Source of the DNA: Plasmodiophora brassicae
Taxonomy: Eukaryota
Direction: 5' to 3'
NCBI GenBank assembly: GCA_036867785.1
Contig: CP145411.1
Span: 434,001 to 498,000 of the forward strand
Length of the DNA stretch: 64,000 bases
Every line of letters starts with the position of its first letter. The first letter of the stretch is position 1. This document shows positions 38,956 through 64,000 of the stretch, piece by piece. The translations under genes and the position numbers were made by a program. Below the pieces are notes generated by a model. The model did not search any database, was not told the origin of the DNA, and was given only the letters and a program-made list of their open reading frames with translations.

Positions 38956-39170
38956 GACGTCGCCGGCGTCCCATTATTTCTCGCGATGTCTCTCGGGGTC
39001 TCGGTGATGTTGCTGGTGACTTCGCTGAGCGGGTTGCCGTCTCTGTCGATCCCCACTGCATCGGCAAGCCGTTGCTGGTGTAGATACAACGCGGCTCGGC
39101 GTGCCCAGGCGAGGAACGTGTCGGCCTTGCCGTCGAACCTGGGTGGACTGCGGGCCGTTGGCAGGCGCAT
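38334..39170 (-). pseudogene. Chimeric ORF: copia-like gag N-terminal fragment fused in frame to the duplicated membrane-protein 3' half
   Basis: PPRFDGKADTFLAWARRAALYLHQQRLADAV (gag-like PxFDG...W motif) followed by RHNSVPDNGPDFLNHK... from the duplicated gene. Confidence 0.5.
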
Positions 39171-40541
39171 ACTCGACCCTTGCCTTACGGACGAGGCCGG
39201 TGACGATCTGGTCGCTGCTGCCTCGTTCTCGGCTCGGAGGCGGCGGTATTCTCGATCGCAGCAGTCGCTGTCGAGTCTCCTCGATCGCGGCTGCGAGTTG
39301 ATCCGCAGTCATGCTCTCGATCGTGTCCTCCTCCTCGGTGCCTTGCGTCATGGGAACCGCGATGACGTCTTAGCGATTCCCAAGCATATCACGATGCCCG
39401 GCCGACTCCATCGTCCAGGCTTTGCAATTATCAAGGTCAATTGCAGGAAGGTGGGCAGAGAATATGCTGGCCGATCAACCGTGTCATCGTCTGCACCAGC
39501 TCCACGCTCTGAGTCCATCCGCACGTTCACATTGCATGACTTGTTTATAATGAATTCGTCGTGAGACTGGCTGGTGAGGGTTCGTATCGTTTCCAGGGTA
39601 GACTCGTCAACAACGTTGCATCGCCATCTTCTGTCGTTGCCGCAATTATCGGTTGTAGGAAATGTATATTCTTCAGGGACAACGTCTTGCAGCGTGGCCG
39701 AGTTGCCCTCAATACAGGTTGGGTTGGACGATCCGGAACGGGATCGTCCAACCCACGTACTGATGGCCACATGTATCAGAAGAAGTCAGACACCCGTGGA
39801 GAGCAGCAAAGAATCCGATTGACGAACCTGGGGGTTTGCCCCTAACCTGTACGATGACAATGCAAGAGGCAGCAAAGCACTCATGTCAGAACCGTAATTG
39901 CTTCGGTAGCGGGTGAACGCGTACAGTTGCCATGTCAGATCCGGAGGAATACGACGTTCTCTACCTCCTGCGCGCATCGTATCAAAAGCGTGGACAGGAA
40001 CTTCTTGACTGGACACGAACCTGACAACCATGCGCAGTTAGACGTGGACGACGTTGCTCTCAAGGAATAAACGTACCTCGTGGAACCAAGTTCGGCGGCA
40101 ATGCAGTAACACACTTAGGTTGGTCCAGGACGCGATAATGACCTGGGGAGCTCGGAAATGTAATTCACTTGACGAACAAGCGCATATCGCCCAGACGGGA
40201 TGGTAATAGCGAATCATTAGCGGCCAAGGAATCATCTGACGGGTACAAGACACGAAGCCGTTAGTCGGCCGAGAGTGGTCGGCGGAACGTACCACGAGAA
40301 GCAAAGAAACGGATTCGATGGGGGTCGCATCTAATGGACAGAAAGTAGGGCACGGAGGCCATCAGTCGTTTGCAACGTTCCGGAAAACATACCAAGGGTC
40401 ACGAATAGCGATCGGATCGTACTCGATGGAATCAATACGGGCACCCCAACTGACGACAGAGGAAAGGGTTCGGAGACCATCAGTTGATCATACAGAGGGT
40501 GACGAGCACGCCAAGAGAGGGGAAGGGCCCGATATCGGCTG

Positions 40542-40860
40542 CAAGGCGGCCAACATTGGCATCAAGTGCTGCGCGGGCAGCGCCCAGATGCCGGCGTTCG
40601 ACGTGACCATTACAAGCCTGCTGCAATCATCAACACTGCCATCTGCAGCGGCAACCGACCTCTTCATGGCCCGGCAAGACCACCACGTCGAGCTGCGGAA
40701 GTTTGCTGACGCGTGCCGCGCGGCTCACATCGACTTCAGGCCTTGACATTCAAGTCGACGGGCGGCGCCATGCCGACCGAGCAGTCGACCCTGGATTTTT
40801 GGTGCAACATCTCGGCTCTCCGAACGGGCCGTTACCGCCACGCTCCCGACCCGCTTGCAC
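40542..40860 (+). mobile_element. Fragment resembling the restriction-like endonuclease of CRE-type non-LTR retrotransposons (second copy ~60942-61260)
   Basis: AFDVTITSLLQ...ELRKFADACRAAHIDFRPLTFKSTGG. This copy has a 1-nt deletion (ccttgac vs cctttgac) relative to the 61141 copy. Confidence 0.45.
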
Positions 40861-40994
40861 ACGCACAATGCCGACGCAACGTCGAACAGCCTGGGTTTCC
40901 CGGCGTCGAGCTTCGTTCTTTGTTCATACGCCATCGACAATTCTCAGAAAAGAATGTAACAATGTATGTAGTCCTGGTTTCTGGTGGACGTGGA

Positions 40995-42368
40995 TAGGGG
41001 TCGGCGCGGTTTGGTTTGGTTTGAACCGGTTTTTTGAGGGAGCGAACCAAACCAAACCAAACCAAACGGCCCTCAGGCCTGCTAAACTGAACCGAACTAA
41101 ACCGTGGACCTGGGAACCGAACTAAACCGAAACCGAACCAAACAAACCCCGGTTTATGAGTCGCAGAAAATGGTAATCTACGAGCCTTCGTCATAATCCA
41201 GCTTGTCGACGAGAAGCTTGGCGACCGAGTCGCTGCTTGCCAGCTCACGCAGCTCAGCAGAACTTATCGTACTTAGCAAATGTCGAAAGGCCTGATTGAC
41301 GTCGTCAGGAATTGTAAAATCGAGTTGATGGAAGAGATCCATCCAAGAGGAAACACAAATTTCCGCTTTGAACATGGCGTTCGACAGCGTTTCACGCTCA
41401 TCAAAAATCCGCCTTGCTGTGCTGTTAGCACGCTCGGATGGAATCGAGGTAGCTGGGGCTGCCAGGTAATCCACCGCCATGGGACACAACCTTCTGTACT
41501 TGTTATGATGATCTTGCCACCAGCGGACTATATCTGTATGCCTCGGCTGCACGTTCTCGTCGACCGCAGCAATGTAAGACGATAGCTCTTTGTCGATGCC
41601 GTCCAAGGATAACCTAAGATAGATTATGTCAAAACGCAGCAATGGTTCCAAGCATATCCTATTTGTACGTGTTAGCACTGTGCCCGCTGTCATTCCACAG
41701 GTCGTCGTCTGCAGCAGGATGAGGCACATCGTGAGGGAATTCCGCGTCCGACGACGCGTTGTAGCTCATAAGATGAACTTCGACGATCAGCCACCTGCAC
41801 TTAACAACCTAGGTCCACACCTTCAGGCTTCGCGTTCCTTGGGTCAAGAAACATGGCAATCTGGCCATACTTTTGATGATACTCTAGTGCAGAAGGTATC
41901 GCTTCTCGCAGCATGTTGTCACGATCACACGACGCCAGCATATCCCGGCAGTGGCTCATCATTTGGGCAAGAACGTGAAGCATTAAGCTCGACAACGGCG
42001 CCACTATCCGAAGAAATCGACGAGCCGCTTCGACCGGGCGGCGCAGCAGAGCGAGGAGCTGGCATGGTGCCTGGCAGGTGCTTCGTTCCACGTTGCAGGA
42101 ACAAGCGCAGGGGGCGCGGGCGGAGTGATACGCCCGACGCCGGAGCCCGGACACCGTGGCAGACTGCCTATGTACATAGGTAGCCCAGTGACCAGTTAAA
42201 CCACGGTTTAAACCGGTTTCAAATTTGCAAACCGGTTCAAACCGGTTTGCGCTAACCATCAAACTAAACCGAGCTGAACCAAACCGTATACGGAAAGGCC
42301 AAACCAAACCGCCCAGTTCGGTTTGGTTTTGCCGGTTTTGGTTCGAAACCAAACCGTGCCGACCCCTA
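40995..42368 (-). mobile_element. Internally deleted hAT DNA transposon (1374 bp)
   Basis: TIRs TAGGGGTCGGC(G/A)CGGTTTGG; AAACC/GGTTT subterminal repeats; transposase remnants AMFLDPR and dimerisation domain DIVRWW...MAVDYLAAPATSIPSERANSTA (41178-41729). The empty site is seen at ~61385-61400 and the duplicated target is CGTGGA. Confidence 0.9.
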
Positions 42369-42776
42369 CGTGGAGCAGGCATCTGGCCGAGCCGCGTCTC
42401 GCCCGCCCGCCCTGGATGGTTCGGCAAAAAAGCGGCTCTCACCCTGCGCCGACGGACTTGCCAGTTGCCACCCGTTCTCGCCCACAATGGCATTTGCTAG
42501 ACCATTCGATGTTCGGCCGCGACTCAGTGCAATCATCGGATACCGCAGACAGCCTCGACGTATGGCTCAGGCTCAATCCAGGCGCTTCAACGGCCATCCG
42601 CTGCGCGCCCTCATCCGCATCTACCGGCTGTATTTGAACGCGCTCGGCACATCGGAGGAGATGGGGCGCTTTCTGCTCGAAGCTGCGGTTATCGCCATGG
42701 ACGACGTCACGGCGGACGATCTAGAAGAGTGGTTCGCAGGTCCGTAATTACAAGTCTATCATCAGCTGTTGATACC

Positions 42777-43260
42777 ATCGTTAAAGTATTCATTCTTGCG
42801 CTCGTAGTCTGGCAAGACTTGGGCACCCCGCCCAGGTCCCGCGACCCTAGTCCCGCTAGCTCGGAGTCGAACCACATAGGACTCGGCCGATGGGCGTTGC
42901 CGCCTGCCGATATGATTACTCAAGTGTACGATTCCCATCTGAGCTCAATCGGCATAGTGCTGATTTGCTTCCAGCTGTGCCATTTGCCTGCACGACTTCG
43001 CCGACGCCGTATCGCAGGCAGTCGATGTACCCGCATTCGACAATGACGGCAAGGTGCCCGAAGTCGCTACCATCCGTTCTTTGCCTTGCGGGCACATATT
43101 CCACGACAACTGCATCCGTGAGGTGTGCATTGCTTTCATTTGAAATGTGATTTACTATTCATATGACTTGCAGTGGTTCAATACGGACCACCACATTTGC
43201 CCATACTGTCGCCAGCAAGTCCCTAGAAGACAGTTAGGATCCCAGAATCCAAGCACGTGA
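42777..43260 (+). pseudogene. Small RING-H2 E3-ligase-like gene with hydrophobic N-terminus, no ATG at the expected start (copy 1)
   Basis: The spliced reading gives VCAICLHDFAD...IRSLPCGHIFHDNCIRE|WFNTDHHICPYCRQ. The N-terminus (I)VKVFILALVVW begins at accATC. Confidence 0.65.
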
Positions 43261-43479
43261 GCAACTACGGCGACAGATTAACAAACACAAGAAATCGCAT
43301 TCGTGTTCACGACCCATACCGAGCAGAACATGTTTACATGTATGGCCTCGCAAGTAATACGGGCAGGTACAAGACCAACAATGCGAGCGTGAGCAGATTT
43401 CCCATACTCTGCATGGCCTGCCGGCAGTGACCTATAGAGAGTTAGCAATGAACATTGATCCAGCGAAGCAGCGATGTAG

Positions 43480-43851
43480 TGTGTACGTCTTCTGTTTCGT
43501 CATTGAACTTGAACAAAATCGCGGTCGATACCAGCTGGACAGGCAGGCACGCTATTCTCGTCGAAGTGTTCCAAACAGTGAACCACATATGATGTTTCAC
43601 TAGTTCGGGAAGGCACGACAAACGTCCTTCTTTCCGCGCCTATTGCTTCTGTAACAGATTCAGGACGAAGCTGCAACATTTTCTTGCAACTTCGTCGAAA
43701 TGACGCATCAACGCTCTGTGCAACGAGGCAATACTTCAACCTGCACAATCAATCAGCAACCTATCCAATACTAATGGTGTGAAACATCACCTCAATATCT
43801 TTGCATATACGTCCTTTTCATACTCGAGCAAGATGTCGATCAACTTCGGTA
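43480..43851 (-). mobile_element. Mutator (MULE) transposase C-terminal fragment
   Basis: PKLIDILLEYE...FVVPSRTSETSYVV; same sequence as 63302-63670, where it is preceded by TTGHNEAMHNVLK. Confidence 0.6.
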
Positions 43852-43852
43852 C

Positions 43853-46092: not shown

Positions 46093-49000
46093 TGTGCTAA
46101 CGCCGCCGCTGCCCACTACGGGGGCGGTCGGTCGCAAGAGTCGGCGCCTGGTGATATAACGAACTGATGTATTTGGACAGGATCGTCACAGCAAGGGCCG
46201 CTGCGGGGTCGAGTACGGTCATGATCATGTGACCGGGTGGCAGCAGCATCTGAGCAGCATCATCTGAGTACTGGTACTCTGGATGAACACTCCCCGTGTT
46301 AGAAATCTGCTAACAGTCGTGAGCAGAGCGGGTCTCCTTCGGCTTGTCGTTCGAGGAAGGCCCTGACGATATCAGGAACATCGGCCGCCATGACCGAGTA
46401 AGGTTCCCATGAATTGTCGGTGGCATCGAATCCGATCCAGTTGATCAGTAGTTCAGTGTCACCTGACGTAGAGTTGACTCGAATGTCCTCGACTGCGTTG
46501 ACTTGGTAAGCCACGCCGGTGAGCGCGATGTTGTGCTTCAGGGAAGAGGTGACATTCAAGTGCGCATCTGCATAGAACATTAAGCGCTGGGCGTGTACAT
46601 CTGAGATACGATCAGTCAAGAGATCTCGAACTCGATACACCCAGTCGTTGATGGTGTCGATAATCTGGGCAGGTCCAGTCCAGTTGTACTCGGACTTGGA
46701 GTGCTTGCCATGGTTGGCCACGAGAACATAGTCGCCCGTCGTGAAGTTGATCTCGCGAACATTGCGTCGGCGACGCCGGGCGCGTTGCTTGAGATCACGT
46801 AGATGGGTGCGTGTACGTGCCACTGCTTTGTGCATGTCCTCGAGAGAATCGATAAGTTCCGTCGTCATTTCCTTGAGACGGTCAGGGGTCAACGGTACGT
46901 CGATAACCGCGTCGATGCGTTTGTTGAAGATAATCGAGATAGGTGTCGAGGGTGGCAAACCCGTAAACATCGTGACAGGCGCGTAGCCCACACTTGATCG
47001 AACAGTGTGATTTACCGTCATGTTGATCAGCGGAAGGACATACGGCCAATCCTGGAATGGAAGATTTAGCTCGGAGAGGAGGGACTTCAGCAGAAAGAGA
47101 AGCCGCTTGTTGACAACCTCAACCGTGCCGTTCGCCCAAGGTGTGTAGGCAGTTGTGAAATGATGGTTGCAGTGTAACCGGCTATTAAGCTCGGCGATAA
47201 CCGCGTTTTTGAAGTGTGTGCCGCGGTCAGAGACATGTTGGAAAACAATGCCGAAACGTTTGAACCAATCCAGAAGAGATTCGGCGACAACGCTGTGATC
47301 CGCGAATTGACAAGGAATTAACTCGACGAATGCTGTAGCGTCGTCCTTCAGAACCAGAACATAACGAAGTTGATGAGAATCGCCTGGACGAGGTTTGGAT
47401 AAGAACAGAAAGTCATAGTGGATGACCTTATTGGGCTTGTCCGCATGCATAGCCGTGCCATAAGGTCGGGGGATCATCGAATCTTTGTTGCGTAGGCAGT
47501 GTAAGCATTTGTCCACAAATGCACGAACAAAGGAATCGAGATCAGGCCACCAGAAGAGTTGCGCGATGCTCGAAATAGTCGATGCAGCAAGTTGATGACC
47601 AGACAGTCCCATATGTGAAATCACTGCGATGCGTAGCTGCAGTGCATGTGATGGTACCCAGAGTTGATTGTCTGGAGTACGCCAGCCAGATTCCGGGCTA
47701 AGGTGGAGAGACATGTCCCCTTCGAGTTGGAGAATATCAGAAACGGCAGATAGGTCGTGTTGGCGAATGTAGTCGGTCTGAGCGTTACTAATCTCGTCGA
47801 CAGACGGCCAGATAAACTCATCGGTCATCTTGTAATCGTCGAAGTCAAGATTAATTGCCATATGACGAATAGAACGGAACGATGGAGGGGAAAATGAGGA
47901 GAGTGGTTGCAGGGCGACGCCCCACCGCGTGGCGAGGTCGGCCCAAACGTTGTCCTCCCCAGCAATGTGCTCAATGTGAAAATCTAGGTCGATAATCTGA
48001 AGTCGCCAGCGCTCCAAGCGATCGCCGGTCGTCCGACTAATTCGTGCAACCGAGGCTGGGTTCAGAATGAAAACCAAATTACGGTGGTCTGTGAAGATTC
48101 GAAGTGCCAGCTTTGACATAGAGATGAAGTGTCTGAGGCGATAGCAGCCTTCAATGATGGCGTAGGCCTCCTTCTCAATGGTCGCCCACTTCAATTGAGA
48201 ACCACGGAATGTCCCCGAGATGAACGACAAAGGTTCGTGGTGTTGCTCACCGTACGGGAGATCAATATCTTCCGGAGGGATCTGCGACAGGAAAACAGAC
48301 CAGAAACGGTCACTCGCATCCGGAAAGAGACACATGATCCATTCGTCCTTGGTGTGCGCCAGCGTCATGGCCTCCGATAGTCGATGCTTCAGAGAATTGA
48401 AACTGGTGAGATGGTCAGTGGTCCAGCCGATGTCGGCTAAACGAACTCGACGTAGGTGTGATTTCTTCAGACTGCTGACAGAACGAGAAGCGGACAGAAG
48501 TAGATCCTGTAGCGGATGAACATGTGCCGCGAATTGAGGGATAACAGAACGGACCCAATTGAGGCCCGAGAGGAACTGTTGGAGATCAGCAGCCGTGATA
48601 GGAGTTGATAGATCGTGCAAGGCGTTGAGATACGAGCGATCGAACGACACTCCATCAGCGGATATAACGCGACCGCACCATGTCACTGAAGTGAGATATA
48701 ACTGGCAGCGATCAGGGTTGAGTTTAACTCCAAACTCGTCGAAAGCGTTGAGAAGAGATTCGAGTGTGTCCATGTAGGCTCCGAATCCAGATACGTAGCC
48801 GAGGATATCGTCGATCCAGAGTAGGGCGCAGATATATAGAAGTTTCCCCAACACCTGTTGCATTCCCGCCTGGAACGCAAACACGCAATCAGCGATTCCC
48901 TGGATGATGCGCCTGGGTGTAAACGTGGCGATGTGCGTCATGAACGAGCAGGCCTCCTGCGAATCAGGGTGCAACGGAAATTGCCAATAGCCTTTAAAGG

Positions 49001-51428
49001 CATCGAACAGCATGAAGATGGTCGCGGAACGTAGGTAGGTCAGGATGATGTCGATGTGAGGCATCGGCCATGCAATGCGTTCGGTCTGTTTGTTGACGGC
49101 TTCATTGATGTCGACGGTCAGCCGATGGCCGCGAACCTCCGTGTCCTTCTTGTCGACGACCAGACACGGCGACGCGTACCTGCTGTGCGGATTGCGGTAC
49201 ACAAAATCGTTTTCCGCCAAGGTTCCTACGTGATCATCCATGAATTTTTGATGTTCGAGGGTATACCTTCGTGTTCGGCAACGAACAGGACGAGCATCTG
49301 CTTTGAAGTGTAGTTTCAGTGGACTTACTTTCGCAGGTGGATCACGGCCAAGCTTCGTTCGCCATATGTCTTTGTGTCGATTGACAGTTGTGCGTAGACG
49401 CGGGACTTGATCGTTAGGGAAACCGGAGTCAGTTGCACGTTGTATCATCCGGTCTATTGCCCTGTCCACGTCTGTATCGGAGTGTTCTCCGATTTCGACA
49501 TCATAGTCGTCACCCGGATCATTGGTGTCCAATTGGGGCTCATGATCGCGAGTTGTTCCACTTACCTCCGGGTGTCTTACCGCTCTCATCGTGATCCCTT
49601 GACCACCTGGGGCGTGACGTTCCGGGGTCGGATCCGCTTCGATGATGATAGGACCATTTGCCTCGATTAACATCTCCTTCAGTTGTGTAGCTGGATTGAT
49701 ACCCAACGCGTCCAGTTCCGGGGCTCCTAAAAGGACAATGTCATCAGATAGGTCTTCGCGACATACGTTGATTTCCCGCCCGCGTAGATGTGCAGGTTTG
49801 CCATGCGAAGGTGGGACAATGGTGATGTCCACGATCGCTGTGGCGACAATTGTTGTCGTAGCCCCGATCGTTGCAAGTTTCGCCTCCGTTGGATGGTCGA
49901 ACACTTTGACTGGGACATGCTGGATGGCTTGAATCCGTAGCAGTTGCGATTGCGAAATGACGGTCTTCGTCGCACCACTATCGGCTTCGAATGGAAGGTC
50001 GAGCGAGTTCTGGAAGCGAAGTCTCATAGGGGACGGTGTTGACGGCGACGGCGGGCCCATGCGCTTTGCCGTGTCTGCGTTGCCCTTACTCTCCTCCTTC
50101 TCTTTGCGCTCTTTCTGGAACTTTTCAATGGCAGCTTTGCGTTCTCCTTGAGTTGCCTTCGGGCACACTTGGACCCAGTGCTGCTCCTTGCAGATTAGGC
50201 AACCTGCCTTTGGAGGATCCTTACCTTCGAAACGTTTTCGGATGTGCTCGGGGATGTCCCTCGATTCGTCTTTCGTTTGCGATGTGGACGATTGAGCTGT
50301 CTTCAGTCCGATCGGATTTGTCGGATGCTTGCCGCCATTCCTATTCGGAGCAACAACGTCCTTACCTTTCTTACCTGCAGGTGGGGACATGGTCTGCGCT
50401 GGAGACTTCTTCTTCTCAGCTTGCAGCCGGAAGTGTTTGTCCTGCTCTTTGGCAAGACGGTCGACGAGGTCGAAGAATTTGAGCTCGTCCTTCTCAGCGT
50501 CCCTGCACCCTCCGAACTCGATCGCGCGTTCGACTAGAACCGCAAGGTCAGTGGGACGGATACCTCCGCGTAATACCTTGATCTTGCGCTTGGTTCCTTT
50601 CGTTCCTTTGGCGTATGTGTCTTGTAGCCCATAGTCGTCGATTAGCTCATCGAACTTGGCGAAGAAAGACGTGACACGTTCCTCAATACTCTTGATTGAC
50701 AGGTTCATGACCACTGTCTTCGTGAGAAGCGCCTTGATGTCTGTCGAACTCTCGACATCAGCCTCCCTGCGTTGGACTGACCTCAAGTAGCTCATGATGT
50801 CGCCATCCGTGATCGTGCTGGCGGGTTGACGTAGGCGATATTTCGACATCCCTCTGAGGACGTCCTCGGTAATGCATGACTTCACCGTTGGCGGATGAAT
50901 ATCCTCCTTGTAGATCAGTCGGCGCTCGTTAACGATCTCGACGTGTTTCCTATATTTCTTGAGGAAATCGTTAATTCCGTCCTTGGCCGTAAGGCTCAGG
51001 GTACGTAGGATGGGCGGTTTCAAAGGCATAAAGATCGGGCTCTTACCGTGCAGGTTTGTTGACTGAAGCCCTCGATCGATTTCGTCATCTGTCGACGATT
51101 CATGCTCCTTGGCCTCGGCGTCGGAGTTGGTCCTGGCGTCGTCCTCCATCTGTAGACGAACGGGCGCTCTGCGGCCACCTCCTGCCATTAAGTGAGTTCG
51201 TTTGCTTGGGGCTCTTTGCGCAAGAAGCTTCTGTGCTAACGCCGCCGCTGCCCACTACGGGGGCGGTCGGTCGCAAGAGTCGGCGCCTGGTGATATAACG
51301 AACTGATGTATTTGGACAGGATCGTCACAGCAAGGGCCGCTGCGGGGTCGAGTACGGTCATGATCATGTGACCGGGTGGCAGCAGCATCTGAGCAGCATC
51401 ATCTGAGTACTGGTACTCTGGATGAACA
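46093..51428 (-). mobile_element. Full-length Ty3/gypsy chromovirus-type LTR retrotransposon
   Basis: Identical 197-bp TG...CA LTRs (46093-46289 and 51232-51428); 5-bp TSD AACAG (46088-46092 and 51429-51433); short PPT GGGGAG next to the 3' LTR. Confidence 0.97.
46299..51188 (-). CDS. Gag-Pol polyprotein (gag CCHC, protease, RT, RNase H, integrase, chromodomain)
   Basis: Single 1629-aa ORF: CLICKEQHWVQVC, DSGA, FDAFKGYWQ, LWIDD, PDAS...IEKEAYA...TDHRNL, HHCC, SDRGTHF...NGTVE, WTGP and LLINWIGFDATDNSWEP. The PR-RT-RH-IN order indicates gypsy. Confidence 0.96.
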   Translation of the reverse strand: MAGGGRRAPVRLQMEDDARTNSDAEAKEHESSTDDEIDRGLQSTNLHGKSPIFMPLKPPILRTLSLTAKDGINDFLKKYRKHVEIVNERRLIYKEDIHPPTVKSCITEDVLRGMSKYRLRQPASTITDGDIMSYLRSVQRREADVESSTDIKALLTKTVVMNLSIKSIEERVTSFFAKFDELIDDYGLQDTYAKGTKGTKRKIKVLRGGIRPTDLAVLVERAIEFGGCRDAEKDELKFFDLVDRLAKEQDKHFRLQAEKKKSPAQTMSPPAGKKGKDVVAPNRNGGKHPTNPIGLKTAQSSTSQTKDESRDIPEHIRKRFEGKDPPKAGCLICKEQHWVQVCPKATQGERKAAIEKFQKERKEKEESKGNADTAKRMGPPSPSTPSPMRLRFQNSLDLPFEADSGATKTVISQSQLLRIQAIQHVPVKVFDHPTEAKLATIGATTTIVATAIVDITIVPPSHGKPAHLRGREINVCREDLSDDIVLLGAPELDALGINPATQLKEMLIEANGPIIIEADPTPERHAPGGQGITMRAVRHPEVSGTTRDHEPQLDTNDPGDDYDVEIGEHSDTDVDRAIDRMIQRATDSGFPNDQVPRLRTTVNRHKDIWRTKLGRDPPAKVSPLKLHFKADARPVRCRTRRYTLEHQKFMDDHVGTLAENDFVYRNPHSRYASPCLVVDKKDTEVRGHRLTVDINEAVNKQTERIAWPMPHIDIILTYLRSATIFMLFDAFKGYWQFPLHPDSQEACSFMTHIATFTPRRIIQGIADCVFAFQAGMQQVLGKLLYICALLWIDDILGYVSGFGAYMDTLESLLNAFDEFGVKLNPDRCQLYLTSVTWCGRVISADGVSFDRSYLNALHDLSTPITAADLQQFLSGLNWVRSVIPQFAAHVHPLQDLLLSASRSVSSLKKSHLRRVRLADIGWTTDHLTSFNSLKHRLSEAMTLAHTKDEWIMCLFPDASDRFWSVFLSQIPPEDIDLPYGEQHHEPLSFISGTFRGSQLKWATIEKEAYAIIEGCYRLRHFISMSKLALRIFTDHRNLVFILNPASVARISRTTGDRLERWRLQIIDLDFHIEHIAGEDNVWADLATRWGVALQPLSSFSPPSFRSIRHMAINLDFDDYKMTDEFIWPSVDEISNAQTDYIRQHDLSAVSDILQLEGDMSLHLSPESGWRTPDNQLWVPSHALQLRIAVISHMGLSGHQLAASTISSIAQLFWWPDLDSFVRAFVDKCLHCLRNKDSMIPRPYGTAMHADKPNKVIHYDFLFLSKPRPGDSHQLRYVLVLKDDATAFVELIPCQFADHSVVAESLLDWFKRFGIVFQHVSDRGTHFKNAVIAELNSRLHCNHHFTTAYTPWANGTVEVVNKRLLFLLKSLLSELNLPFQDWPYVLPLINMTVNHTVRSSVGYAPVTMFTGLPPSTPISIIFNKRIDAVIDVPLTPDRLKEMTTELIDSLEDMHKAVARTRTHLRDLKQRARRRRRNVREINFTTGDYVLVANHGKHSKSEYNWTGPAQIIDTINDWVYRVRDLLTDRISDVHAQRLMFYADAHLNVTSSLKHNIALTGVAYQVNAVEDIRVNSTSGDTELLINWIGFDATDNSWEPYSVMAADVPDIVRAFLERQAEGDPLCSRLLADF

Positions 51429-54400
51429 AACAGGGAGGCGCTCGATCCGATTGAAGTCTATGTCAGCAATGCCCATGCGTGATCCTAGTCGTAGACCCGG
51501 AGCATGGATTTCGTCGAGGCGGACGCACACAGCTCCTGATGGACCGCTTGAAAGATCGGTAATCGAGCCCGAAGCAAGCCGCTTTCCGTTCGATCCAATG
51601 ACGACATCGACGCGTAAACCGCAGGCAACGGTCGCTGGCGCAATCGGAACGGTGCAGTCGTTGAATTGCATGAAGTAATCGTACAGCGCCAAACATGCGT
51701 ACGCATCCCGACAAGCATACCGCACGAACTCGACAGGCAATGGTTTCTTCAGCCATTTGTCGGAGACCCGGATGTTTGGATCTTTCTCCATTGCGACGCC
51801 GAAAACGCGCTGCATCAAGTGAGCAAGTGATACCTTGCTGGACGCGATCTTGCCACAGCGTTTGCCGATCTTCGCCACATCGACATGACCGGTCATTAAC
51901 ACACCGAAGTCCTTCTGCAGTTTTTTGAGGTCCCCTTCAATAGATAGCCCGGCCTTCGTAACGGTTGGATCTTCAAGCAACATCTTCAGCCCAACTGGAC
52001 AATCGCTGAGCAATTGCAGAACGCGAGGAGGATGGCCGCGAAGTGCGATTTGTACCGTACAAACCGGTGACGTGATTGATTTCCACCTTGCGCCGTCCTT
52101 CATAAAGGTGACGTTGGACTCCGTATCGAAACCAACAACACGGTCAGCGATGGGAAGATTGCGGATGGCGCTACAGAAATCCGAAATGGCCCGGGTGTTG
52201 TTCAGGACAATGCCGTCGGGATCAGGCCAGCAGAACGCAGGAAACGGATCAGCGCCACGTCTGGAACTGTCATCCATCGACGTATCCTTGGATACAGTCT
52301 CTATAGCGGATGCAATCGAAGCGACTACGCGACCGATTATTTCGTCGTCAGGAGCTGCAGGATTGCTTGAATAACCATCAGCGACTTCCCGAGCGACAAG
52401 CAGGGCCGTCTGTGACATCATCTGAACGACATTCTTTACGATCGATTGTTCAATCGGCAAGTCTTCGTCTTCCACAGCAATCCTCAGCATGGTTTGAGCC
52501 TTATGACGAGCAGCAGAGATCACGCGAACGTTGAGGTCGGATAGCGCAGCGTGAATAGGGGTATCAGAGGAAACGGACGAAAGGAGTTGATCGAGAATTC
52601 GTTTCAAACTCGAGCAGAAAGCATCGCGCCTCGCCAATGCTTTGCGAACCCAGATGATCTCCATGAACGCGGAAGCGTCCTGGCAGCACCGATCCGAAAC
52701 GATAACCGATGCAAGTTCGAAGCCGTTGAGAAGACAGCGCAGCAAGTAACCTCGAAGCGCGACAAAGACTTCATTGAGCGAAGTGCTGTAGGTGAACCGT
52801 TGGAGCGTGGGTTCCTCGAACTCATTGACCGCTGTCAGGAGTGCGCTAAAGAGGGGATACGGGCCGAACATGCGCAACAGCTTCGGCACTTTAAAAGAGT
52901 GGTCCAGCTTCAGAACACGCCCATCGACAGTCTGTTGCAGCCGGTCCATCAGCGGGCGGTGCTCAGACAGGTATTTGAGGTACATAGCTTCTAGGAAAGA
53001 CGCCGAAGGAACGAAGCCATCGTAGCCGTTCGGGTCGTCGAAGGCCGAGAACTGTTGCGGCGAAATGGCTTGCTGCTTGGTAAAGGCATAGCCGAAACGA
53101 TGCAGACAATGTTGGAGGGCACCAAAATATTGGATCTGCGTCCTCGTGTACCGCAGCGTATGCGTCTCCATGAGATGGCGGGCGAATCCAGCGATCGATA
53201 CACCATGATCGACCAGCGACCTCATTTCGTCGAGTACCGACTTGTCGATCCCGCTGCGGTGCGTAATGAAGGCAGGAAAAACGGTGCGAACGAACGACGG
53301 CAGACTGACCAAGAGCTCGGGGTCATGGCCACTGAACGTGGACGGAGTCAGACCACGTGCTTGGCAATTGCCGCATCGGTAACGGCGGGTGACAACGTAG
53401 TAGGAGCGATCACGCCCAACAACGCGACGGCCCATGGTCCATCCCTTTCGCACGACATTGGGACGGCCGCGAATCTGCTTGTTGAAGCGTTCATGTCCAC
53501 ATCTCGGCCACTTTAACTGAAGATCGCAGAACATGGTCTCGACGTCCCAGATGAATACAGGAACCAAATAGAACAAATCCAATGAGATGTCCTTAATGTT
53601 CTCCCGCACACATGGCACTGGTGGATGCACCCAGCACTGGCCGTGCTTAACACCCGCTAGCAAAGCGCTATCATCTCGCCGAAGGTCGTTGACAATGCAC
53701 TCGAGATGGTTCCGCATGGCCGACGATATACGCCGTGAACGATTCTGAACCGAAGGGCCTGCATCCACATGCCCACTGTCCTCGTCATCTTCATCTATAT
53801 GCGCATGTGTGTAAGTGAGGGCCGCATGACAGCATTTGTCATCGACGATGCGCTCACCGGTTGTAATGCCGCCGTCGTCGGACTCATCGGTGGAGTCGGA
53901 CGTTTCCAAAAGTGCATCTGACGCTTGTAGCTCGAACGGCAGTTCATTGGCGTCGGCGCCATGGTCAGCAGAGCCATCCCTCCCCGACCGACCAAAGCGT
54001 CGAAGGAACCGATCCAATGATCCGCTTCCTGTAGTCAGCAATGGCATTGGCGGTACTCCCGAATGCACAGGTGAATTGCTCGACGGCGGCGACGATGCAG
54101 GGCTAGACGCCTCAGATGACATAACCGGTGAATCGCGTGTCTGGGCAATCGCAGCAGCAGTACCGGGAAGACACCGTACAGCAGTGCCTTGTGCAGTCGC
54201 CATACGAAGAGCGGCGGACGTCGAATCCTCAAGTGCTCGAAGAAGAGCGTTGTTGGTGGCCGGCTGGGCCGCTAGGGTCGATGACGATGTCGGCAGTGAT
54301 GCTACATCTGGCCGAGAACTGGACGAAACCGGTGGAATCACGACAGCACTGTCGTTGGCTGGTGTGACCGGTTCTGACGATGGCAGTGCAGGCAATGCGA

Positions 54401-54554
54401 GAGCTCGGGCATCTCGATCAGGACTGGAAGACACCGCGCGTGTTGCTGATCCAAGAAAATGATGCATGGACGTCTGCCGGCCGCCAGTCGGCGCTGGCGA
54501 CAGCGCCCTCGTTCGCTTGCGCCCTGCGCCTGGACGCGCTCCTCCCCTGGGCAT
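51429..54554 (-). CDS. N-terminal part of the transposase-exonuclease ORF (AT-hook-like start, DUF6729-like region, DDE residues, WRN-type DEDDy exonuclease)
   Basis: MPRGGARPGAGRKR; PVFIWD...RRYRCGNC...FPAFITHRSGIDK; VLKLDHSFK; VNEFEE; IVSDRCCQD; exonuclease motifs VVGFDTES, GLSIEGDLKKL, SDKW and YACRDAY. Confidence 0.78.
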
Positions 54555-54697
54555 GACCGACTACACAATGACACCCCAGAGTCAGCCCTGCGGACCAAGG
54601 AGCCCTCGTCCAACAAAAAACAACAACATAAAACGTCAAGCAATCGCTGCAATCCTCGTAAAACGTTGGTATCGAAAAAACAGCCATTCTCCACGGA

Positions 54698-55195
54698 GTC
54701 CGAGTCAAGGATGACTGTCAGTCCGAGTCAAGAGCGACTCGCGTCCGAGTCAAGCTCTGACTGGGCGAGTCGGTCCACTCACCGCGTGGCTGCCCCAAAC
54801 AAACAAACCCAACCGGAAATGCCACGGGTACTTAGCCATTGGACCCGGAAATGCCACGGGTACTTAGACATTGGTTTGTGCGCTTCACGGACAAACAAAT
54901 TTAGCCGACGACAAACCCAACCGTAAATGCCACGGGTACTTAGCGGAAATGCCGTAAATGCCACGGGTACTTACCGGAAATGCCGTAAATGCCACGGGTA
55001 CTAATTAGCCAATGGTTTGTGCGCTTCACGGACAAGCACAATAGCAGACGACAAACCCAACCGGCCATTGGACCGGAAATGCCACGGGTACTTAACCATT
55101 GGTTTGTGCGCTTCACGGACAAGCACATCAACGAAACCCAACCGGAATGCCACTGGCCACTGGACCGTCCGACTCAGTGCGCTTCACGGACAAAC
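54698..55195. repeat. Complex subterminal repeat array
   Basis: About 6 copies of AATGCCACGGGTA, 4 of GCGCTTCACGGACA and 3 of GTCCGAGTCAAG, interspersed. Confidence 0.88.
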
Positions 55196-55283
55196 ACGGT
55201 CATGTGAGTATCACACTCACATGACCGTTGAAATGCGCCGGCACCACGTTGTTGAAACAGGGCCACAGAGATGCATACTCCTA

Positions 55284-58200
55284 AGTCCTTCATCGGTAAC
55301 GATGGCCACCGTGAAGTGGGTGCGTGAGGAGTTGTGAAACATTATAGCTGCCAGTTCGTACAACTCGCGCTTCAGCTTGATATCCATCCCGATTGACTCC
55401 ACTGACCGAGTGGTCATCGGATGGTCCTCCCAGTACGGGACATTTAGAACCAATATCTTCGGACGGGTCACAACGTCTCGCTCGAGGATTGTCAGCGTTC
55501 CAGCGCATCTGAACCATCCATCCGCTGGCCTGAACATGGATTCGTCGTAGAGTAATTCCATATCAGTGCCGTCATCGGGGACAGCATTGCATCGCCTCTC
55601 TGTTGGACGGGACGATATGAAGCGCTCGATGATACGCTGAGCAATAGCTGGAACGCCGCCTCCTGCCGAAGTTTCGACGACAATCGCCCGGTGGGTTTTT
55701 CTCAGCTGGGATTGCGGTTGCGGGCAAGTGCTCTTCTGACATGAGGTTTCATCGACTGTCTTGAAATCGAACAAGTCCGGCTCGACGGCGTACAACGCAG
55801 AATGCAGGTCTCCATAGAAGTCCCATGTACGTTGAGAACCGTCGACAGGTCGCTTCATTCGCTGAGTTGCCCATATATATCGAGCTTCTTCATGCTGCCC
55901 AGCATGAAGAAGTCTTAGCACCCTAAGAAGGCATTCGTGCTCCTTTCCGATATCAAACTTGCGATATTGCTGCACAGACCAATATTAGATTCTTCAGATC
56001 GGAAAAAACAAGGCAGTGCTCAACCCATAAAAAGTACACGGCCATAAGAGCACTGTCCATTGGGCATGTATTGGTCGCTTGAAATGACCTAGCACAAAAA
56101 GCGTCAACTGCCTCGTTAGGTGCTACCTTACATTAACAAGTACCGGTAGGTGAACGACCATGGTATACCGACTCGTTGGAGCTCGGTGGATAAATCATAC
56201 ACGGCGCTATTGGTGTTGTCGGCCTGTAACGACTCATCTGGTGCCCGTTGAGAAGCCAAGTGACCATCAGCACCAGGGACCCTTCCTTGAGCACTCTGTC
56301 TTTGCTTCGCGTGAGGAGGTTCGTGTCTCGTCGAAGGAGATTCCGAGGCATGGGGTTCCGCCCTGCCATCACGGGTTTCGACAGCGCTTCCGCTTTCAAC
56401 CTTGTCGACCAGCGCGTAAAACGCGTACATTATCGGTCTATTTGGCGCCTCATCACGAGATACCCTTCTGAGTTTTGGGGACTGGAGACCATCATACAAA
56501 ATCCTTAGCCCTCCTGGCAGGTATACCATGCCAGAGAAGTGAGTGGCGTTGGAATTCGTGAAGAGCAAGCCGCACAGCTCGTATCTGAGTCCGCCGAACC
56601 TCAAAGTTTCAGAAGCCGAACGTACCAGAAGGTCCGAGGTGTCGATTCGGAGAATGGAAGGAGCTCTGAAGACATTCCACTGCTTATGGATGCGATCGCT
56701 GTCACATTTGTACATTATCGTGCCGTGCGGCCGGAGCCACGTCCTCGAACCACAATGCGGAACTGTTTGCCGTTACATGATCAGGTGATGCCAGGGCTCC
56801 GCATTTGCCCACACGTACTCCTGTAACCATGTCTAGCACAGTGTCGTTGATTCCTTGACAGTTAGGAGGCAGAGCGATACGGTCGAGCAAGTCGGACTCA
56901 ACTGTTTGGACGCTTTGTGGGCAATAGTCTGACGAACACGATGTGTCGACGACGTACTGGAAAGCGAATAAATCGCTCAAATAGTTGAGAAATCGTTCGG
57001 CCGGATCCCCTGACAAGTCGATCTGGTGTCCCTCCCCATCAGCAGGTCCGTTCAACTTGGCTGTCCACCACAAGTAGCGCGCCTCGCCATACTTCTCCTT
57101 CCGTACGCAGTCAAGTACTTCGTGCAGGATCGGATCGTCAGGAATGCTCAGAGCATTGTACTTGTACCACAAGTACACCATCATTAGAGGCGTATCGAGG
57201 TGTTGGTATAAGTCACGTCCCCGTAAGTGAAGCTCCAAGGTATCCCGAATGTGGCCCAGTTGACGTCAGTTCCCACTGGTGTGAGCCTGTCTTCGCAGCG
57301 ACTACCTCTTATCTTCTTGATGACGCGTTCTGTCGCAGCTTCCTGTTGCCGTCGTTTCCTCTTGGTCGCGGACCGGATCCTTGGAATTGTGTCTGGCGGT
57401 CTGCCATCGTTGCGAGCCTTGCGTGGCTTGTACTTGTCGCGAATGCCCACGAGTGCGTTGTTGTATGCAGCCTCTATCTCTTTCACGAATCGGTGAGTGT
57501 GACCAATTGTCTGACCGATTGTCATTTTCAGTGATGGTGCGCTGCGTTCCCAGGAACCACCAACGCTCTCCTGGGCGTTCGTGTCCCGGGACATGAATGC
57601 CATTTCGCTGGAGCCCAGAGCAGGAAAAATGTGCTTTCCACGACTCTCGTGCAGATGCCAATCCAGCCATGCTTTGAGCTTCGGATACTTACGAACGATC
57701 CCTTCAACACGATCTGCAAAGGATTCAGGATCAGTCTGCTTCAGCAACGACACCAGATTCTTGTAGCAAGCTTTCTGTTCAGAGCTGGGTACGAGCGCGT
57801 GATTGTTTGTGACCCTGGACAGGGTCCGTTTGAAATGAACTTCACAAAAACGGTAGTACCGCTCCATGTGAACATCGACGTCATCAGGAATCGAGCAGTA
57901 TTCCCGTAAGGCGGTTTCGAAGCCTGCCCGTTCAGCGTCCGAGAAATCGCAAGTGTTGCCGGGGAAAGTGTCCCCCCACTCATCCAGGTTACGGGGCATT
58001 TGCATCGACTGGAACAACGAATCGAAATGGAATGCATAATGGTCGGCACTTTTTCCATAGAGCAGGCTTATTAGGACAGGAATATTCCTTTGGAGTAAAG
58101 GACAATGACCTGTCGTCATTGTTATCGTCGCATTCCTGTAGGCATCTCTGCTGGCACCGATGATGTGCAGCTTTTCGATCGAGTCGCTTTGAAGTGCCGA

Positions 58201-59264
58201 TTCCCTGGCTTTAAGCCTTTCCCTCATAAAGTTGGTTTGAATCACGAAGCCCAGCACACTGATAAAGGGGAAAATCCGCTCTACACAATCCCGCTCATAC
58301 GTGTAGAGACCGGCCATGGACGAGTCGGGCCTCTCGACAATCTTCGATCGGTAGTATTTCACGCGATCAATGTTTGCAAGCGCACTGTGTAGTTGGCCAA
58401 GAGCAGGCCTGGTTTGGGCACCCACAAGTAGCTGCTTCGGCGTCAGCTCCGGCGCGAACTTGACCATCTGCTTAAACGCGGCATATGCTTCCGCCGAGGG
58501 CCGGGCCTGATGGGGGGTGGCCTCGGATGTCGGTGAACACCGTTGTTGGAGACGATAACTACGGTGGTAGACTGCCTATCGTGCTCCTCAATGGTGATCG
58601 TAGCCTCGCATGACAAGTGCAGCAGCGGTTCCTGGTGCTGCACGCATAGTGCTGCAGATTTCATCGGCAGGCAGTGTTTGCTGCGATTGCGCCTGGGAAC
58701 CTTCGGGCGCTCGACGTACCCACAATGCTCACGTGGGCAGACGTACACGCCGAGGCAGGATTTTACATGCCTTTTGCGGGCGGTTTTGTTCCCACTCGAG
58801 GTACTATACGTTACGCCTGCCCACCCGATTTGTCGATACAGCAATACATCTTTTCTGTTTGTCACCTCGGCCCTGTAACAAACGTTGCCGTTGGGGTATT
58901 CGCGCGAGCTGTCGATTTCTGGAGTCGGCCTGTTCGCGTTGGCCATGTTGTCGTCGTCATCTTCGTCAAGGTGTCGTTGCGCAGAGATATCGTGGGACTG
59001 GCCTTTGCGGATCGCCTGGTCCAAGAGTGGTCCGGGGACGTCAGCCTCAAACGTGCCTCCATGGGCGTCGTAACTGGCGACTCTGTCCTCTTCCAATGAG
59101 CAAACTGCCCCAGAGTCATGACGCGTCGTATCACGGTGTTGTGTTGCAGTCGGCTGTCTGTCGATGCCCAACGCTGCCAGGACAGCACCCGTATCTACAT
59201 CGTCAGTCGCTAGCTGCAACAACAGCTTCAGGCCGTTCACTAGCAGCTTGTCCAGCTGCGCCAT
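55284..59264 (-). pseudogene. Frameshifted GCM-like + Mutator-like transposase gene with two tandem USP-like cysteine protease domains
   Basis: KSCLGVYVCPREHCGYVERPK...CVQH...HLSC...NNGVHRHPRP (GCM-like); LQSDS, TCDFSDAE, FCEVHFKR and DTNAQES (DDE plus CxxH); then twice GIPWSFTY...NT(C)xxD, Cys pairs and YEL...THF. Frameshifts near 58500, 57200 and 56720. Confidence 0.62.
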
Positions 59265-60042
59265 CGAGGCCAAAATACCAAGCTCCAGGTGCAACTGCAC
59301 GAACCAGGTATGAACTCCTTCAACTCTTAGCACTCTCAACCTGCACTCTCAACCTGTGTGATTCCTCTTGTGATATTTCCAGCCGTCTGGCCCATGACAT
59401 TGAGTAATTTAGTAAGATGACCATAGCTGCTATCTAAATGTCTGCACAAAGCCAACCGTACAACAATGTATCAACAGCTGTGCGTGTTGAGAACCACCCG
59501 ACAAGCAGACAAGTTTTGGACAATGCTGGACTGGTTTGGTTTGGTTTTGGTTTGGTTTGGTTTTGGTTTGGTTTTATTTGTTTTTCGCGCTTTTTCTTTT
59601 CACGCAGGCGCCTCGGTCTCGAGTCCGAGGATCGAAGGATCAGCAGCAGAACGCCAACATCCCCCGGCCTGGCAGTGCCGGCCCGTCACCTTTGTACTGG
59701 GTTCATCGCGCCTTGGACGATATCGGAACGGGACGTGATTCGCTCGGACTTGTCGACTGCACTCTTGTCGGACCTCTTTCGCCATACCGCCTATGCCGGG
59801 GAGCCGACATACACTTGTTACGGGCCGTTCCTTTACCTCCCAGACGCTCAAGCGAGACCCCTAATTGCTCTGGCACTTTGGGCTGCCTGATCAGTAAACA
59901 CCCCTTCAACATTTACGGCTGTTGGTCACCGGGACTTTTTTGGGGGAGTTCGTGCCTCGAACTGGGGACCTTGCGGTCCCGCGACTGCTTGCTGACCTGT
60001 TGCTAGTACTCCTGACCAGCTAGGCCACTGGGGCAGCGCCCC

Positions 60043-60541
60043 CTCATTATGGCCGGTGGTATCTGGCATGTCTCTGCTCGGGAAAGCCAGGGACCATTGA
60101 TCTGGCCGGTTGAAATAATAATCCTCGAGATAACTCAGAGCCTGCGGTTCTCGTCCAGACCAGAACTTCCGGAACCAGTCCAGCATTGTCCAAAACTTGT
60201 CTGCTTGTCGGGTGGTTCTCAACACGCACAGCTGTTGATACATTGTTGTAAACGTGATGTTTCAGTCGAGAAAAATCGACGATGCCATCAACGTCACAGA
60301 AGGGGCACGTAAAAGGAGATTTGCATGGTTCACTGGCTTGAGTGGGAGAACTCCTGTCTCCTGGATCGCGATGAGCACGGTCCAGGTGCCGGCACAGGCT
60401 ATCCATGTCTTTCAGCTGGCTGGGACATTGCTGGCACGGCACCGGGCGAGCGTCGGTGTGCGTCTTCACGTGGCGCGTCAACTTCTTCTCTGAGAAGGTT
60501 TTCGAGCACATGCTGCATGTCAATGCCATGCTAGCAACCAA
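60043..60541 (-). mobile_element. Internally deleted MULE: C2H2 zinc fingers joined to transposase C-terminal sequence
   Basis: CSMC...HVKTH, CQQC...HLDRAH and CPFC...HH, then WFRKFW...YLEDYYFNRPDQWSLAF...DTTGHNE. Segment 60043-60186 repeats at 63725-63868. Confidence 0.6.
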
Positions 60542-61790
60542 GTTCGACGCGAAACAAAGTTCGACGCGAAATACCTACATAGTCGGGTAGGCCGCGTCTC
60601 GGAGCGGTAACCCCGAGAGACATCGCGAGAAATAATGGGACGCCGGCGACGGCCAGGCACAACAGCGTCCCGGACAACGGGCCCGACTTCCTGAACCACA
60701 AGGTCCAGCTGTTCGCCGTCCTCGCGCTGGTGACGTTGCAGGAGGCTTCCAAGCAAGGCGCCGTCATTGAATGGATTCACCGCGGCAAGACGTCTTCGAT
60801 CCTGCCGATGCTGGCGGACGCGCTCGGGTACGCGGCGTCGGACGGCCTGGTTGTTAGCCTGGCCATGGCGATCCCCCAGGTGATCTCCTCGCCGCTGCCC
60901 GCATCGTCTGCCGCCACGTACGTGACGCCGACGGATTCGGTCAAGGCGGCCAACATTGGCATCAAGTGCTGCGCGGGCGGCGCCCAGATGCCGGCGTTCG
61001 ACGTGACCATTACAAGCCTGCTGCAATCATCAACACTGCCATCTGCAGCGGCAACCGACCTCTTCATGGCCCGGCAAGACCACCACGTCGAGCTGCGGAA
61101 GTTTGCTGACGCGTGCCGCGCGGCTCACATCGACTTCAGGCCTTTGACATTCAAGTCGACGGGCGGCGCCATGCCGACCGAGCAGTCGACCCTGGAAATT
61201 TGGTGCAACACCTCGGCTCTCCGAACGGGCCGTTACCGCCACGCTCCCGACCCGCTTGCACACGCACAATGCCGACGCAACGTCGAACAGCCTGGGTTTC
61301 CCGGCGTCGAGCTTCGTTCTTTGTTCATACGCCATCGACAATTCTCAGAAAATAATGTAACAATGTATGTAGTCCTGGTTTCTGGTGGACGTGGAGCAGG
61401 CATCTGGCCGAGCCGCGTCTCGCCCGCCCGCCCTGGATGGTTCGGCAAAAAAGCGGCTCTCACCCTGCGCCGACGGACTTGCCACCCGTTCTCGCCCACA
61501 ATGGCATTTGCTAGACCATTCGATGTTCGGCCGCGACTCAGTGCAATCATCGGATACCGCAGACAGCCTCGACGTATGGCTCAGGCTCAATCCAGGCGCT
61601 TCAACGGCCATCCGCTGCGCGCCCTCATCCGCATCTACCGGCGGTATTTGAACGCGCTCGGCACATCGGAGGAGAGGGGGCGCAATCTGCTCGAAGCTGC
61701 GGCTGTCGCCATGGACAACGTCACGGCGGCCGAGCTAGAAGAGTGGTTCGCAGGTCCGTAATTACAAGTCTATCATCAGCTGTTGATACC

Positions 61791-62274
61791 ATCGTTAAAG
61801 TATTCATTCTTGCGCTCGTAGTCTGGCAAGACTTGGGCACCCCGCCCAGGACCCGCGGCCCTAGTCCCGCTAGCTCGGAGTCGAACCACATAGGACTCGG
61901 CCGATGGGCGTTGCCGCCTGCCGATATGATTACTCAAGTGTACGATTCCCATCTGAGCTCAATCGGCATAGTGCTGATTTGCTTCCAGCTGTGCCATTTG
62001 CCTGCACGACTTCGCCGACGCCGTATCGCAGGCAGTCGATGTACCCGCATTCGACAATGACGGCAAGGTGCCCGAAGTCGCTACCATCCGTTCTTTGCCT
62101 TGCGGGCACATATTCCACGACAACTGCATCCGTGAGGTGTGCATTGCTTTCATTTGAAATGTGATTTACTATTCATATGACTTGCAGTGGTTCAATACGG
62201 ACCACCACATTTGCCCATACTGTCGCCAGCAAGTCCCTAGAAGACAGTTAGGATCCCAGAATCCAAGCACGTGA
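61791..62274 (+). pseudogene. RING-H2 gene, copy 2
   Basis: Near-identical to 42777-43260. Confidence 0.65.
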
Positions 62275-62492
62275 GCAACTACGGCGACAGATTAACAAAC
62301 ACAAGAAATCGCATTCGTGTTCACGACCCATACCGAGCAGAACATGTTTACATGTATGGCCTCGCAAGTAATACGGGCAGGTACAAGACCAACAATGCGA
62401 GCGTGAGCAGATTTCCCATACTCTGCATGGCCTGCCGGCAGTGACCTATAGAGAGTTAGCAATGAACATTGATCCAGCGAAGCAGCGATGTA

Positions 62493-63299
62493 CAGTGTTT
62501 ACCGTAATTAGTCTGTATGCGCGATTAGTGTTAGTTCATAACTAGTCGTTCGGGGCTCGCTGCGCTTCGCCCGCTCCCTCCTAGGTGCAACCCCCTCCAC
62601 CAACCCCGTTGAGCGCAACCCCTTGCAGGTTACGTGCCCGATGACGCCACTCGGTTTAGTGGTGTGGATTAGTGTGATACACGCTATTCAGGGTTGGCTG
62701 CTCTTGCCACACGTCAGTATATATAGTACAACGTTGGTAAATACATGCGAAGTGTACCATGAAATTGAGATCTCGTTATGTACCTTAACATGTATGGACC
62801 GACTCCGCCTTCAAAATGGTTGCAAAGTTTGCAACAATCGCCTGTAGTTCAGGCGATAACTGTTGGATGCGCCATTCGCCAGTGACATCCTTAGACAAAC
62901 CGCGGCACTGTCGCTGCTGCTGGTGCAGCTTCGAGCGAGCAAACGATGCAGCAATATTACGTGACGCGGAAAAAGACCGACTGCGCTTGCGACGATGATT
63001 ATGCAGGTGGTGCCATCGTTGTATCTCACCTGAACTGAATGCAATCAATTCCGGGTCCCGGCGGCCTTAGCGGTCAGCACCTGCGGCATCCATGGGGACT
63101 GACTAGGTAGCACTGCGGCGCTGCGTATGCCTATACACACTAAATAAGTGTGAAAATAAATAGTGTGTATCACAGTATTCATGCCAGCACCTATATAGTG
63201 TTAATTCCCATTTAGTGTTATACACACTAATCAAGGGTTGGGCCTCGAAATCTGCTAACACCTAATTAGTCTGATACAGACTAATTACGGTAAACACTG
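62493..63299. mobile_element. Tc1/mariner-type MITE (807 bp)
   Basis: Perfect 26-bp TIR CAGTGTTTACCGTAATTAGTCTGTAT with a TA target duplication; empty site gatg-TA-gt at 43477-43478 in the paralogous copy. Confidence 0.93.
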
Positions 63300-63301
63300 T
63301 A

Positions 63302-63869
63302 GTATGTACGTCTTCTGTTTCGTCATTGACTTGAACAAAATCGCGGTCGATACCAGGACAGGCAGGCACGCTATTCTCGTCGAAGTGTTCCAAACAGTGA
63401 ACCACATATGATGTTTCACTGGTTCGGGAAGGCACGACAAACGTCCTTCTTTCCGCGCCTATTGCTTCTGTAACAGATTCAGGACGAAGCTGCAACATTT
63501 TCTTGCAACTTCGTCGAAATGACGCATCAACGCTCTGTGCACCGAGGCAATACTTCAACCTGCACAATCAACCAGCAACCTATCCAATACTAATGGTGTG
63601 AAACATCACCTCAATATCTTTGCATATACGTCATTTTCATACTCGAGCAAGATGTCGATCAACTTCGGTACCGACGTGCCGACTCTGCCGGCAAAGTAAA
63701 CATACTTTAAAACATTATGCATCGCCTCATTATGGCCGGTGGTATCTGGCATGTCTCTGCTCCGGAAAGCCAGGGACCATTGATCTGGCCGGTTGAAATA
63801 ATAATCCTCGAGATAACTCAGAGCCTGCGGTTCTCGTCCAGACCAGAACTTCCGGAACCAGTCCAGCAT
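63302..63869 (-). mobile_element. MULE transposase C-terminal fragment
   Basis: YLEDYYFNRPDQWSLAFR...DTTGHNEAMHNVLK (catalytic E motif)...PKLIDILLEYE. Confidence 0.7.
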
Positions 63870-64000
63870 TCATTGGGCGCTGCCCCAGTGGCCTAGCTGG
63901 TCAGGAGTACTAGCAACAGGTCAGCAAGCAGTCGCGGGACCGCAAGGTCCCCAGTTCGAGGCACGAACTCCCCCAAAAAAGTCCCGGTGACCAACAGCCG

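Follow-up and report, generated by a model that had tools for sequence, protein, structure and literature searches.

Very probable remains of a MuDRF-type transposon with a doubled USP-like protease module in Plasmodiophora brassicae

The combination of a GCM zinc domain and a DDE transposase within a single protein defines MuDRF, a branch of MuDR with a target site duplication of 9 bp (Cantu et al. 2011, PMC3164196). The available excerpts of this account name no protease, whereas the family described here would carry a USP-fold domain, which is doubled in the copy under study. In other Mutator transposons and in Ginger, the transposase also bears a papain-like deconjugating domain on the C-terminal side of its DDE domain, as in the present case, but this domain is of the ULP1 or OTU class and not of the USP class (excerpts of PMC1702500 and PMC2836005). 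One Trichomonas transposase_11 protein harbouring a peptidase C19 domain is also mentioned (PMC2836005, in part), so the fusion of a transposase with a USP as such has a precedent. Further, the VTD deubiquitinases of Helitrons, which belong to another transposon class and another protease family, are likewise borne by transposons, sometimes two in tandem, have tamed host derivatives, and are active on K48, K63 and K11 chains (PMC9741609, in part); by analogy, they may be regarded as a precedent for active transposon-borne deubiquitinases. In a literature search of openly accessible papers, no account came up of GCM-Mutator or MuDRF elements carrying a USP domain, and the available parts of PMC5751038, PMC6446971 and PMC12730594 name no GCM element. 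The copy reported here is of a known type, the GCM-Mutator element itself having already been published, and its USP cargo is a variation on it.

With regard to P. brassicae, the gene of interest occupies positions 55284..59264 on the minus strand of the window, i.e., the whole 64,000-nucleotide stretch of contig CP145411.1 that was analysed. We consider it very probable that this locus is a decayed MuDRF-type cut-and-paste transposon, from a family equipped with a USP-fold deconjugating domain, whose module was doubled before the copy died. The original prediction had joined five minus-strand ORFs into one gene through three frameshifts and introns. The five ORFs and all the motifs that it named were found in place, and alignment with relatives positioned the three frameshifts (Table 1). 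The frameshifts thus stood, the introns remained predictions, and the translation into one protein did not hold, the gene being untranslatable as a single protein in the present genome. Copy 2 of the module is colinear with its relatives under the assumption of two GT-AG introns, for which 1034 splice models were enumerated and 170 were open; both introns are predicted, their splicing being unobserved. Their length is compatible with the local splice joints, which measure 52-85 nt, and a related copy of the element carries a 2-nt deletion at 56100, inside the first of them.

Table 1. Features of the transposon copy, with their positions in the window
Feature	Position	Strand	Remarks
5' reading frame, with GCM zinc domain at ~58904-58503	58443..59264	-	ATG at 59264, 273 codons; matches Pfam GCM and family GCM profile (123 bits)
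Frameshift 1, between GCM and core	58498..58507	-	5-nt direct duplication in the sequence; relatives colinear across the site
Predicted Mutator-type DDE catalytic domain	57460..58242	-	D 58185, D 57948, CxxH 57846-57837, W 57669 and 57660, E 57570
USP-like module, copy 1	56401..57246	-	Short deletion (break at 57198-57197) removes the Cys codon; second frameshift near 56740-56716
Linker from copy 1 to copy 2	56170..56400	-	77 codons, in frame; open frame 56772-56131
USP-like module, copy 2	55285..56169	-	Retains Cys (56066) and His (55318); short or cut at its 3' end
Predicted intron 1 of copy 2	56089..56143	-	55 nt, GT-AG; shared by the three top-scoring models among 170 open ones
Predicted intron 2 of copy 2	55970..56024	-	55 nt, GT-AG; alternative donor 56009 scores alike (113.2 vs 113.6 bits)
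Spliced antisense transcript(s) over both modules	55294..56859	+	Six joints in runs X15/X16 (presumed RNA), none in DNA runs X1/X4

The GCM domain of the original prediction is matched by Pfam PF03615 with an E-value of 8.7e-4 and 19.7 bits, under the 25-bit cut-off, and the family profile matches mouse GCM1 (1odh) with an E-value of 3.5e-6. The proposed MULE-like core likewise found support. Its structural model (pLDDT 85.6) has as best match ISCth4 (Foldseek E 1.5e-5; Z 11.6, rmsd 5.6, 253 aligned residues), which we take to be a member of the IS256/Mutator family, while integrases and Hermes reach Z 9.6-9.8. In an alignment of 84 sequences, D131, D210, the CxxH motif, W303, W306 and E336 are invariant or nearly so; C244-H247 lie 34 residues past D210, and the two W precede E336. 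The Mutator superfamily is characterised by a (C/D)xxH motif 15-45 residues after the second D and a W before the E, features also present in hAT (PMC5499845, in part). Fold and residues support a putative Mutator-type DDE domain with an RNase H fold and an insertion domain. GCM and DDE are encoded together in one ORF of intact relatives, and the presence of both in the window gene would place this copy, as judged from sequence, in the published MuDRF group.

In the case of the element ends, comparison of 54400-55300 with 59200-64000 yielded no inverted ends beyond chance matches of 10-15 nt for the window copy, and no target site duplication was found for it. Among 32 relative loci, mostly on short contigs, long inverted ends surround the gene in three, L003 (136 nt), L004 (193 nt) and L012 (66 nt), each represented by a single metagenome contig, and the inverted ends of the relatives contain repeated motifs. 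L012 is without flank, and a target duplication of 8-11 bp is absent from L003 and L004, the two loci with flanks, L003 displaying a 5-bp candidate. The original prediction had pointed to intact copies with terminal inverted repeats and target duplications: intact relatives and three loci with inverted ends came to light, while the ends of the window copy and a duplication of 8-10 bp did not.

The repeated module had been proposed to be a USP- or papain-like protease. As single sequences, the window modules have no match in Pfam or PDB, and none of 17 modules gives a Pfam USP match. The fold was modelled on the module of a relative, P0117, and not on the broken modules of the window (pLDDT 85.7, 44-row alignment). 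This model exhibits a thumb-palm-fingers fold and has 424 PDB matches at E <= 0.001, with USP18 retrieved at E 2.9e-10; its best 26 structural matches are all USP-family or USP-like proteins. USP35, USPL1, CYLD and USP12 align with it across 220-245 residues at Z 17.7-18.4, the highest value being that of USP35 (rmsd 3.5, 245 aligned). The module profiles match USP46 with E-values of 3.5e-5 and 9.4e-5, and the Cys and His boxes are aligned. In 42 full modules, the Cys is conserved in all, the His in 41 and the oxyanion Asn in 40, and the third residue of the triad is Asp in 38, Asn in one and a gap in three. With the USP family (USP35, USP12/46, USP7, USPL1, CYLD), the module shares the fold over 220-250 residues, the Cys box, the His box and the Asp. 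It differs from these proteins by its low identity (8-17% for P0117), the lack of a Pfam UCH match, a Trp-bearing hairpin ahead of the Cys box, and five additional Cys that are conserved. The modelled fold, in agreement with the proposal, supports the assignment of the module to a predicted USP-fold protease family using Cys, His and Asp. Giant-virus USPs match the module by general fold only, and none of 19 candidate stretches on viral contigs encodes a relative.

The protease and the transposase, predicted to be linked, reside in one ORF in intact relatives and not in separate genes. Of the 61 proteins whose DDE end is complete and whose tail has 300 residues or more, 47 match the module profile (17 of the proteins in this count had gone into building the profile); the other 14 comprise 11 that match a richer profile weakly (E-values referring to a 22-sequence set), one with a Pfam UCH domain, one with ULP1, and one with neither. 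A search with the family profile that also matches GCM1 retrieved, among 1.84 billion, 3066 representatives at E <= 0.001, which is an upper bound since the profile contains charged linkers. The named relatives belong to Schizophyllum, Mycena, Mortierellaceae, Attheya, Pigoraptor and Spongospora. Schizophyllum commune, found among them, is also a host named in the excerpts of PMC3164196; hhalign gave no match of the module profile with P0144 and P0019, so the S. commune link stands on weak HMMER matches (E ~5e-5 in the 22-sequence set). One relative (P0085) carries a second protease, ULP1, besides the module, another (P0143) possesses the start of a canonical UCH, and chromo, PHD and weakly PARP-like fingers also occur. 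On these sequence comparisons, the USP module holds as a putative family-level cargo of MuDRF-type elements. In other respects, P0021, P0069, P0071 and P0098 carry a PDZ domain inside the USP module, or N-terminal ZF-HD-like or BRCT domains.

The presence of the module in two copies was confirmed, since tblastn aligns copy 1 with copy 2 (E 1.8e-10, 37% across 71 residues) and both exceed 130 bits on a profile made from the relatives only, copy 1 (with X at its breaks) scoring 133 bits and copy 2 151 bits. The further claim of a transposon lineage with tandem cargo did not survive: none of the 178 proteins retrieved has two modules, and intact relatives, including P0188 of Spongospora subterranea, carry one each; by tree path, the Spongospora module is the nearest. 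The doubling appears to be restricted to the window copy or a small local subfamily and not to be a trait of the lineage. With regard to its origin, we lean towards an internal duplication. Somewhat less probable, though a serious competitor, is the proposal that copy 2 was left by another, older element, or by an intron-bearing gene of the family that had been tamed, and became joined to copy 1 by deletion or recombination. The identity of the two copies is indeed only 28% overall, with no DNA similarity, and introns are predicted only in copy 2. The maximum likelihood tree also keeps the copies apart, joining them in 0% of 200 bootstrap trees, and the linker between them weakly resembles (29%) the post-DDE linker of P0188. 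However, a clade uniting both copies is not rejected (p-AU 0.169), GIPWSFTY starts both, and both contain an insertion of 3 residues that none of the six relatives compared possesses. Moreover, the junction is in frame through all 77 codons, where 5.5% of 10000 shuffles are stop-free, and a second copy of the element, with a similarity of about 90%, spans the same junction besides parts of the GCM region, which makes the doubling older than the split of these two copies.

From the domains, we can propose how the element would have worked. The GCM domain would bind the repeated motifs in the inverted ends, and the DDE domain, judging from its fold and conserved residues, would cut and join DNA. 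The USP domain would most likely strip ubiquitin or a ubiquitin-like tag, and we hold such a deconjugating activity to be probable in view of the modelled fold. USPL1, a SUMO protease, ranks level with the ubiquitin USPs (Z 17.8), so the substrate may be ubiquitin or another tag. The target might be the transposase itself, which would then be spared from the proteasome, or proteins of chromatin and of repair acting where the DNA is cut; that USP, UCH and ULP1 replace one another in one slot, together with the fingers found in relatives, suggests targets of these kinds. It is unlikely that the domain is instead a self-processing protease cutting a transposon polyprotein, as suggested for OTU-bearing Mutator proteins (PMC1702500, in part). 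Viral papain-like proteases do share the fold, with Z 9-12 against P0117, but cellular USPs reach Z 14-18, well over these values, and in some relatives this slot is occupied by a canonical UCH or by ULP1, which points to deconjugation. Within the small subfamily of this genome, a deconjugating module would have been doubled long ago; three frameshifts and the loss of the 3' end would then have killed the copy, which would now be read mainly in antisense.

The window copy is dead, a pseudogene with three frameshifts and a copy 1 devoid of the catalytic Cys. A complete catalytic triad is present in neither of its two modules. Copy 1 has retained the His (56541) and the Asp of YDG (56493); in copy 2, the third residue is unrecognisable, a Glu being aligned there with an unsure alignment, and the match to the family ends shortly past the His box. 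The frameshifts are biological, being unchanged in two DNA data sets: contigs from runs X1 and X4, which come from two studies (one of them possibly the source of the window itself), extend over 56509-58711 and 55181-56180 with neither a difference nor a gap, and the window-type contigs of both runs show no difference at the site of frameshift 1. That the locus might be an intact or tamed host gene, with frameshifts due to assembly errors or unrecognised introns, is highly improbable: the transposase core is at single-copy depth and copy 2 has kept its Cys and His, as such a gene might, but the DNA contigs agree with the window over the two stretches just given, the base loss at 57198 is inexplicable by an intron, and the listed splice joints are on the opposite strand.

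All splice joints in X15/X16, presumed to be RNA although no run is recorded as such, are antisense to the window gene; the low cover of the core in these two runs is given no weight here. Five of the six are GT..AG and one is GC..AG on the plus strand, and the longest ATG ORF of the spliced models has 103 residues. We read these plus-strand transcripts as putative antisense non-coding RNA, their strand being deduced from the intron ends. At 58397-58711, the cover of the GCM region in the same runs derives mostly from the related copy. The contig of that copy is shorter by 6 nt at this place and, in the DNA runs, continues for more than 9 kb in a sequence unlike the window.

Several further features were noted around the gene. 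On the minus strand, a 1053-codon ORF at 51399-54560, continuing below 46093, combines DUF6729 with a DDE-like core and a 3'-5' exonuclease domain; it is split by an LTR element, and its frame is open for ~200 codons across the empty site. Its tandem repeats (54803-55197) adjoin copy 2, as does what may be its end, near 55284, and a perfect 14-bp hairpin lies at 55196-55228, just beyond the end of this copy. The idea that copy 2 might resume on the far side of the neighbouring element, near 44030, was unsupported in all three frames, each compared with 200 shuffles. An intact Ty3/Gypsy element with a chromodomain occupies 46093-51428; its two 197-nt LTRs are identical, its ORF has 1651 codons, and it is a recent insertion. 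Upstream of the transposase, a minus-strand ORF with three C2H2-like fingers (60574-60251 and 59458-59430) ends ~170 nt before the ATG; it is split by a small insertion (59459-60250), which has TA on either side and whose inverted ends are perfect over 78 nt. Much of this insertion is at 30-40 times single-copy depth. Finally, 60610-63671 and 35896-43852 share several duplicated blocks, 94-99% alike, including pieces of another transposase-like gene.

A search of the Atlas with the module, whose feature and structure rankings count as one source, placed first the cluster of chordate C14orf28 (features 0.96, 196/256 shared; structure TM 0.69), followed by ordinary USP clusters (TM 0.63). With the partial copy 2 of the window, USP clusters came at 0.91-0.94, and C14orf28 was not among the matches listed. 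C14orf28/DRIP1 is similar in size to the module and, like it, has no Pfam family, but it is a stand-alone host gene in vertebrates. We presume that the motif layout of human C14orf28 agrees with that of the module. This protein, also covered in the accessible portions of PMC9992864 and bioRxiv 2024.05.15.594113, has a predicted USP-like structure that includes an additional fingers-like sheet (PMC10318531, in part). Short extra strands preceding the Cys helix in the P0117 model may correspond to this sheet, and on the models the module may be kin to C14orf28. Two profile searches requiring shared exact words did not retrieve C14orf28, and no transposon link for it was found in the literature, the main text of PMC10318531 containing no word with 'transpos'. 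We tentatively propose, at somewhat less than even chances, that MuDRF elements own an undescribed USP subfamily across fungi and protists, and that C14orf28/DRIP1 is a tamed copy of it.

The doubling in the window is no more than a local oddity in a copy that is dead, and the interest lies in the USP cargo at the level of the family and in the C14orf28 lead. Invisible to Pfam, the USP domain is yet apparently standard equipment of a widespread transposon family, and it brings a further protease class into the question why deconjugating enzymes are found on transposases; the intact single-ORF relatives make its role testable. If the tamed-copy proposal is true, one transposon family would be tied both to an animal transcription-factor domain, GCM, and to an animal deubiquitinase-like gene, and an uncharacterised human protein would gain an origin and natural homologues.
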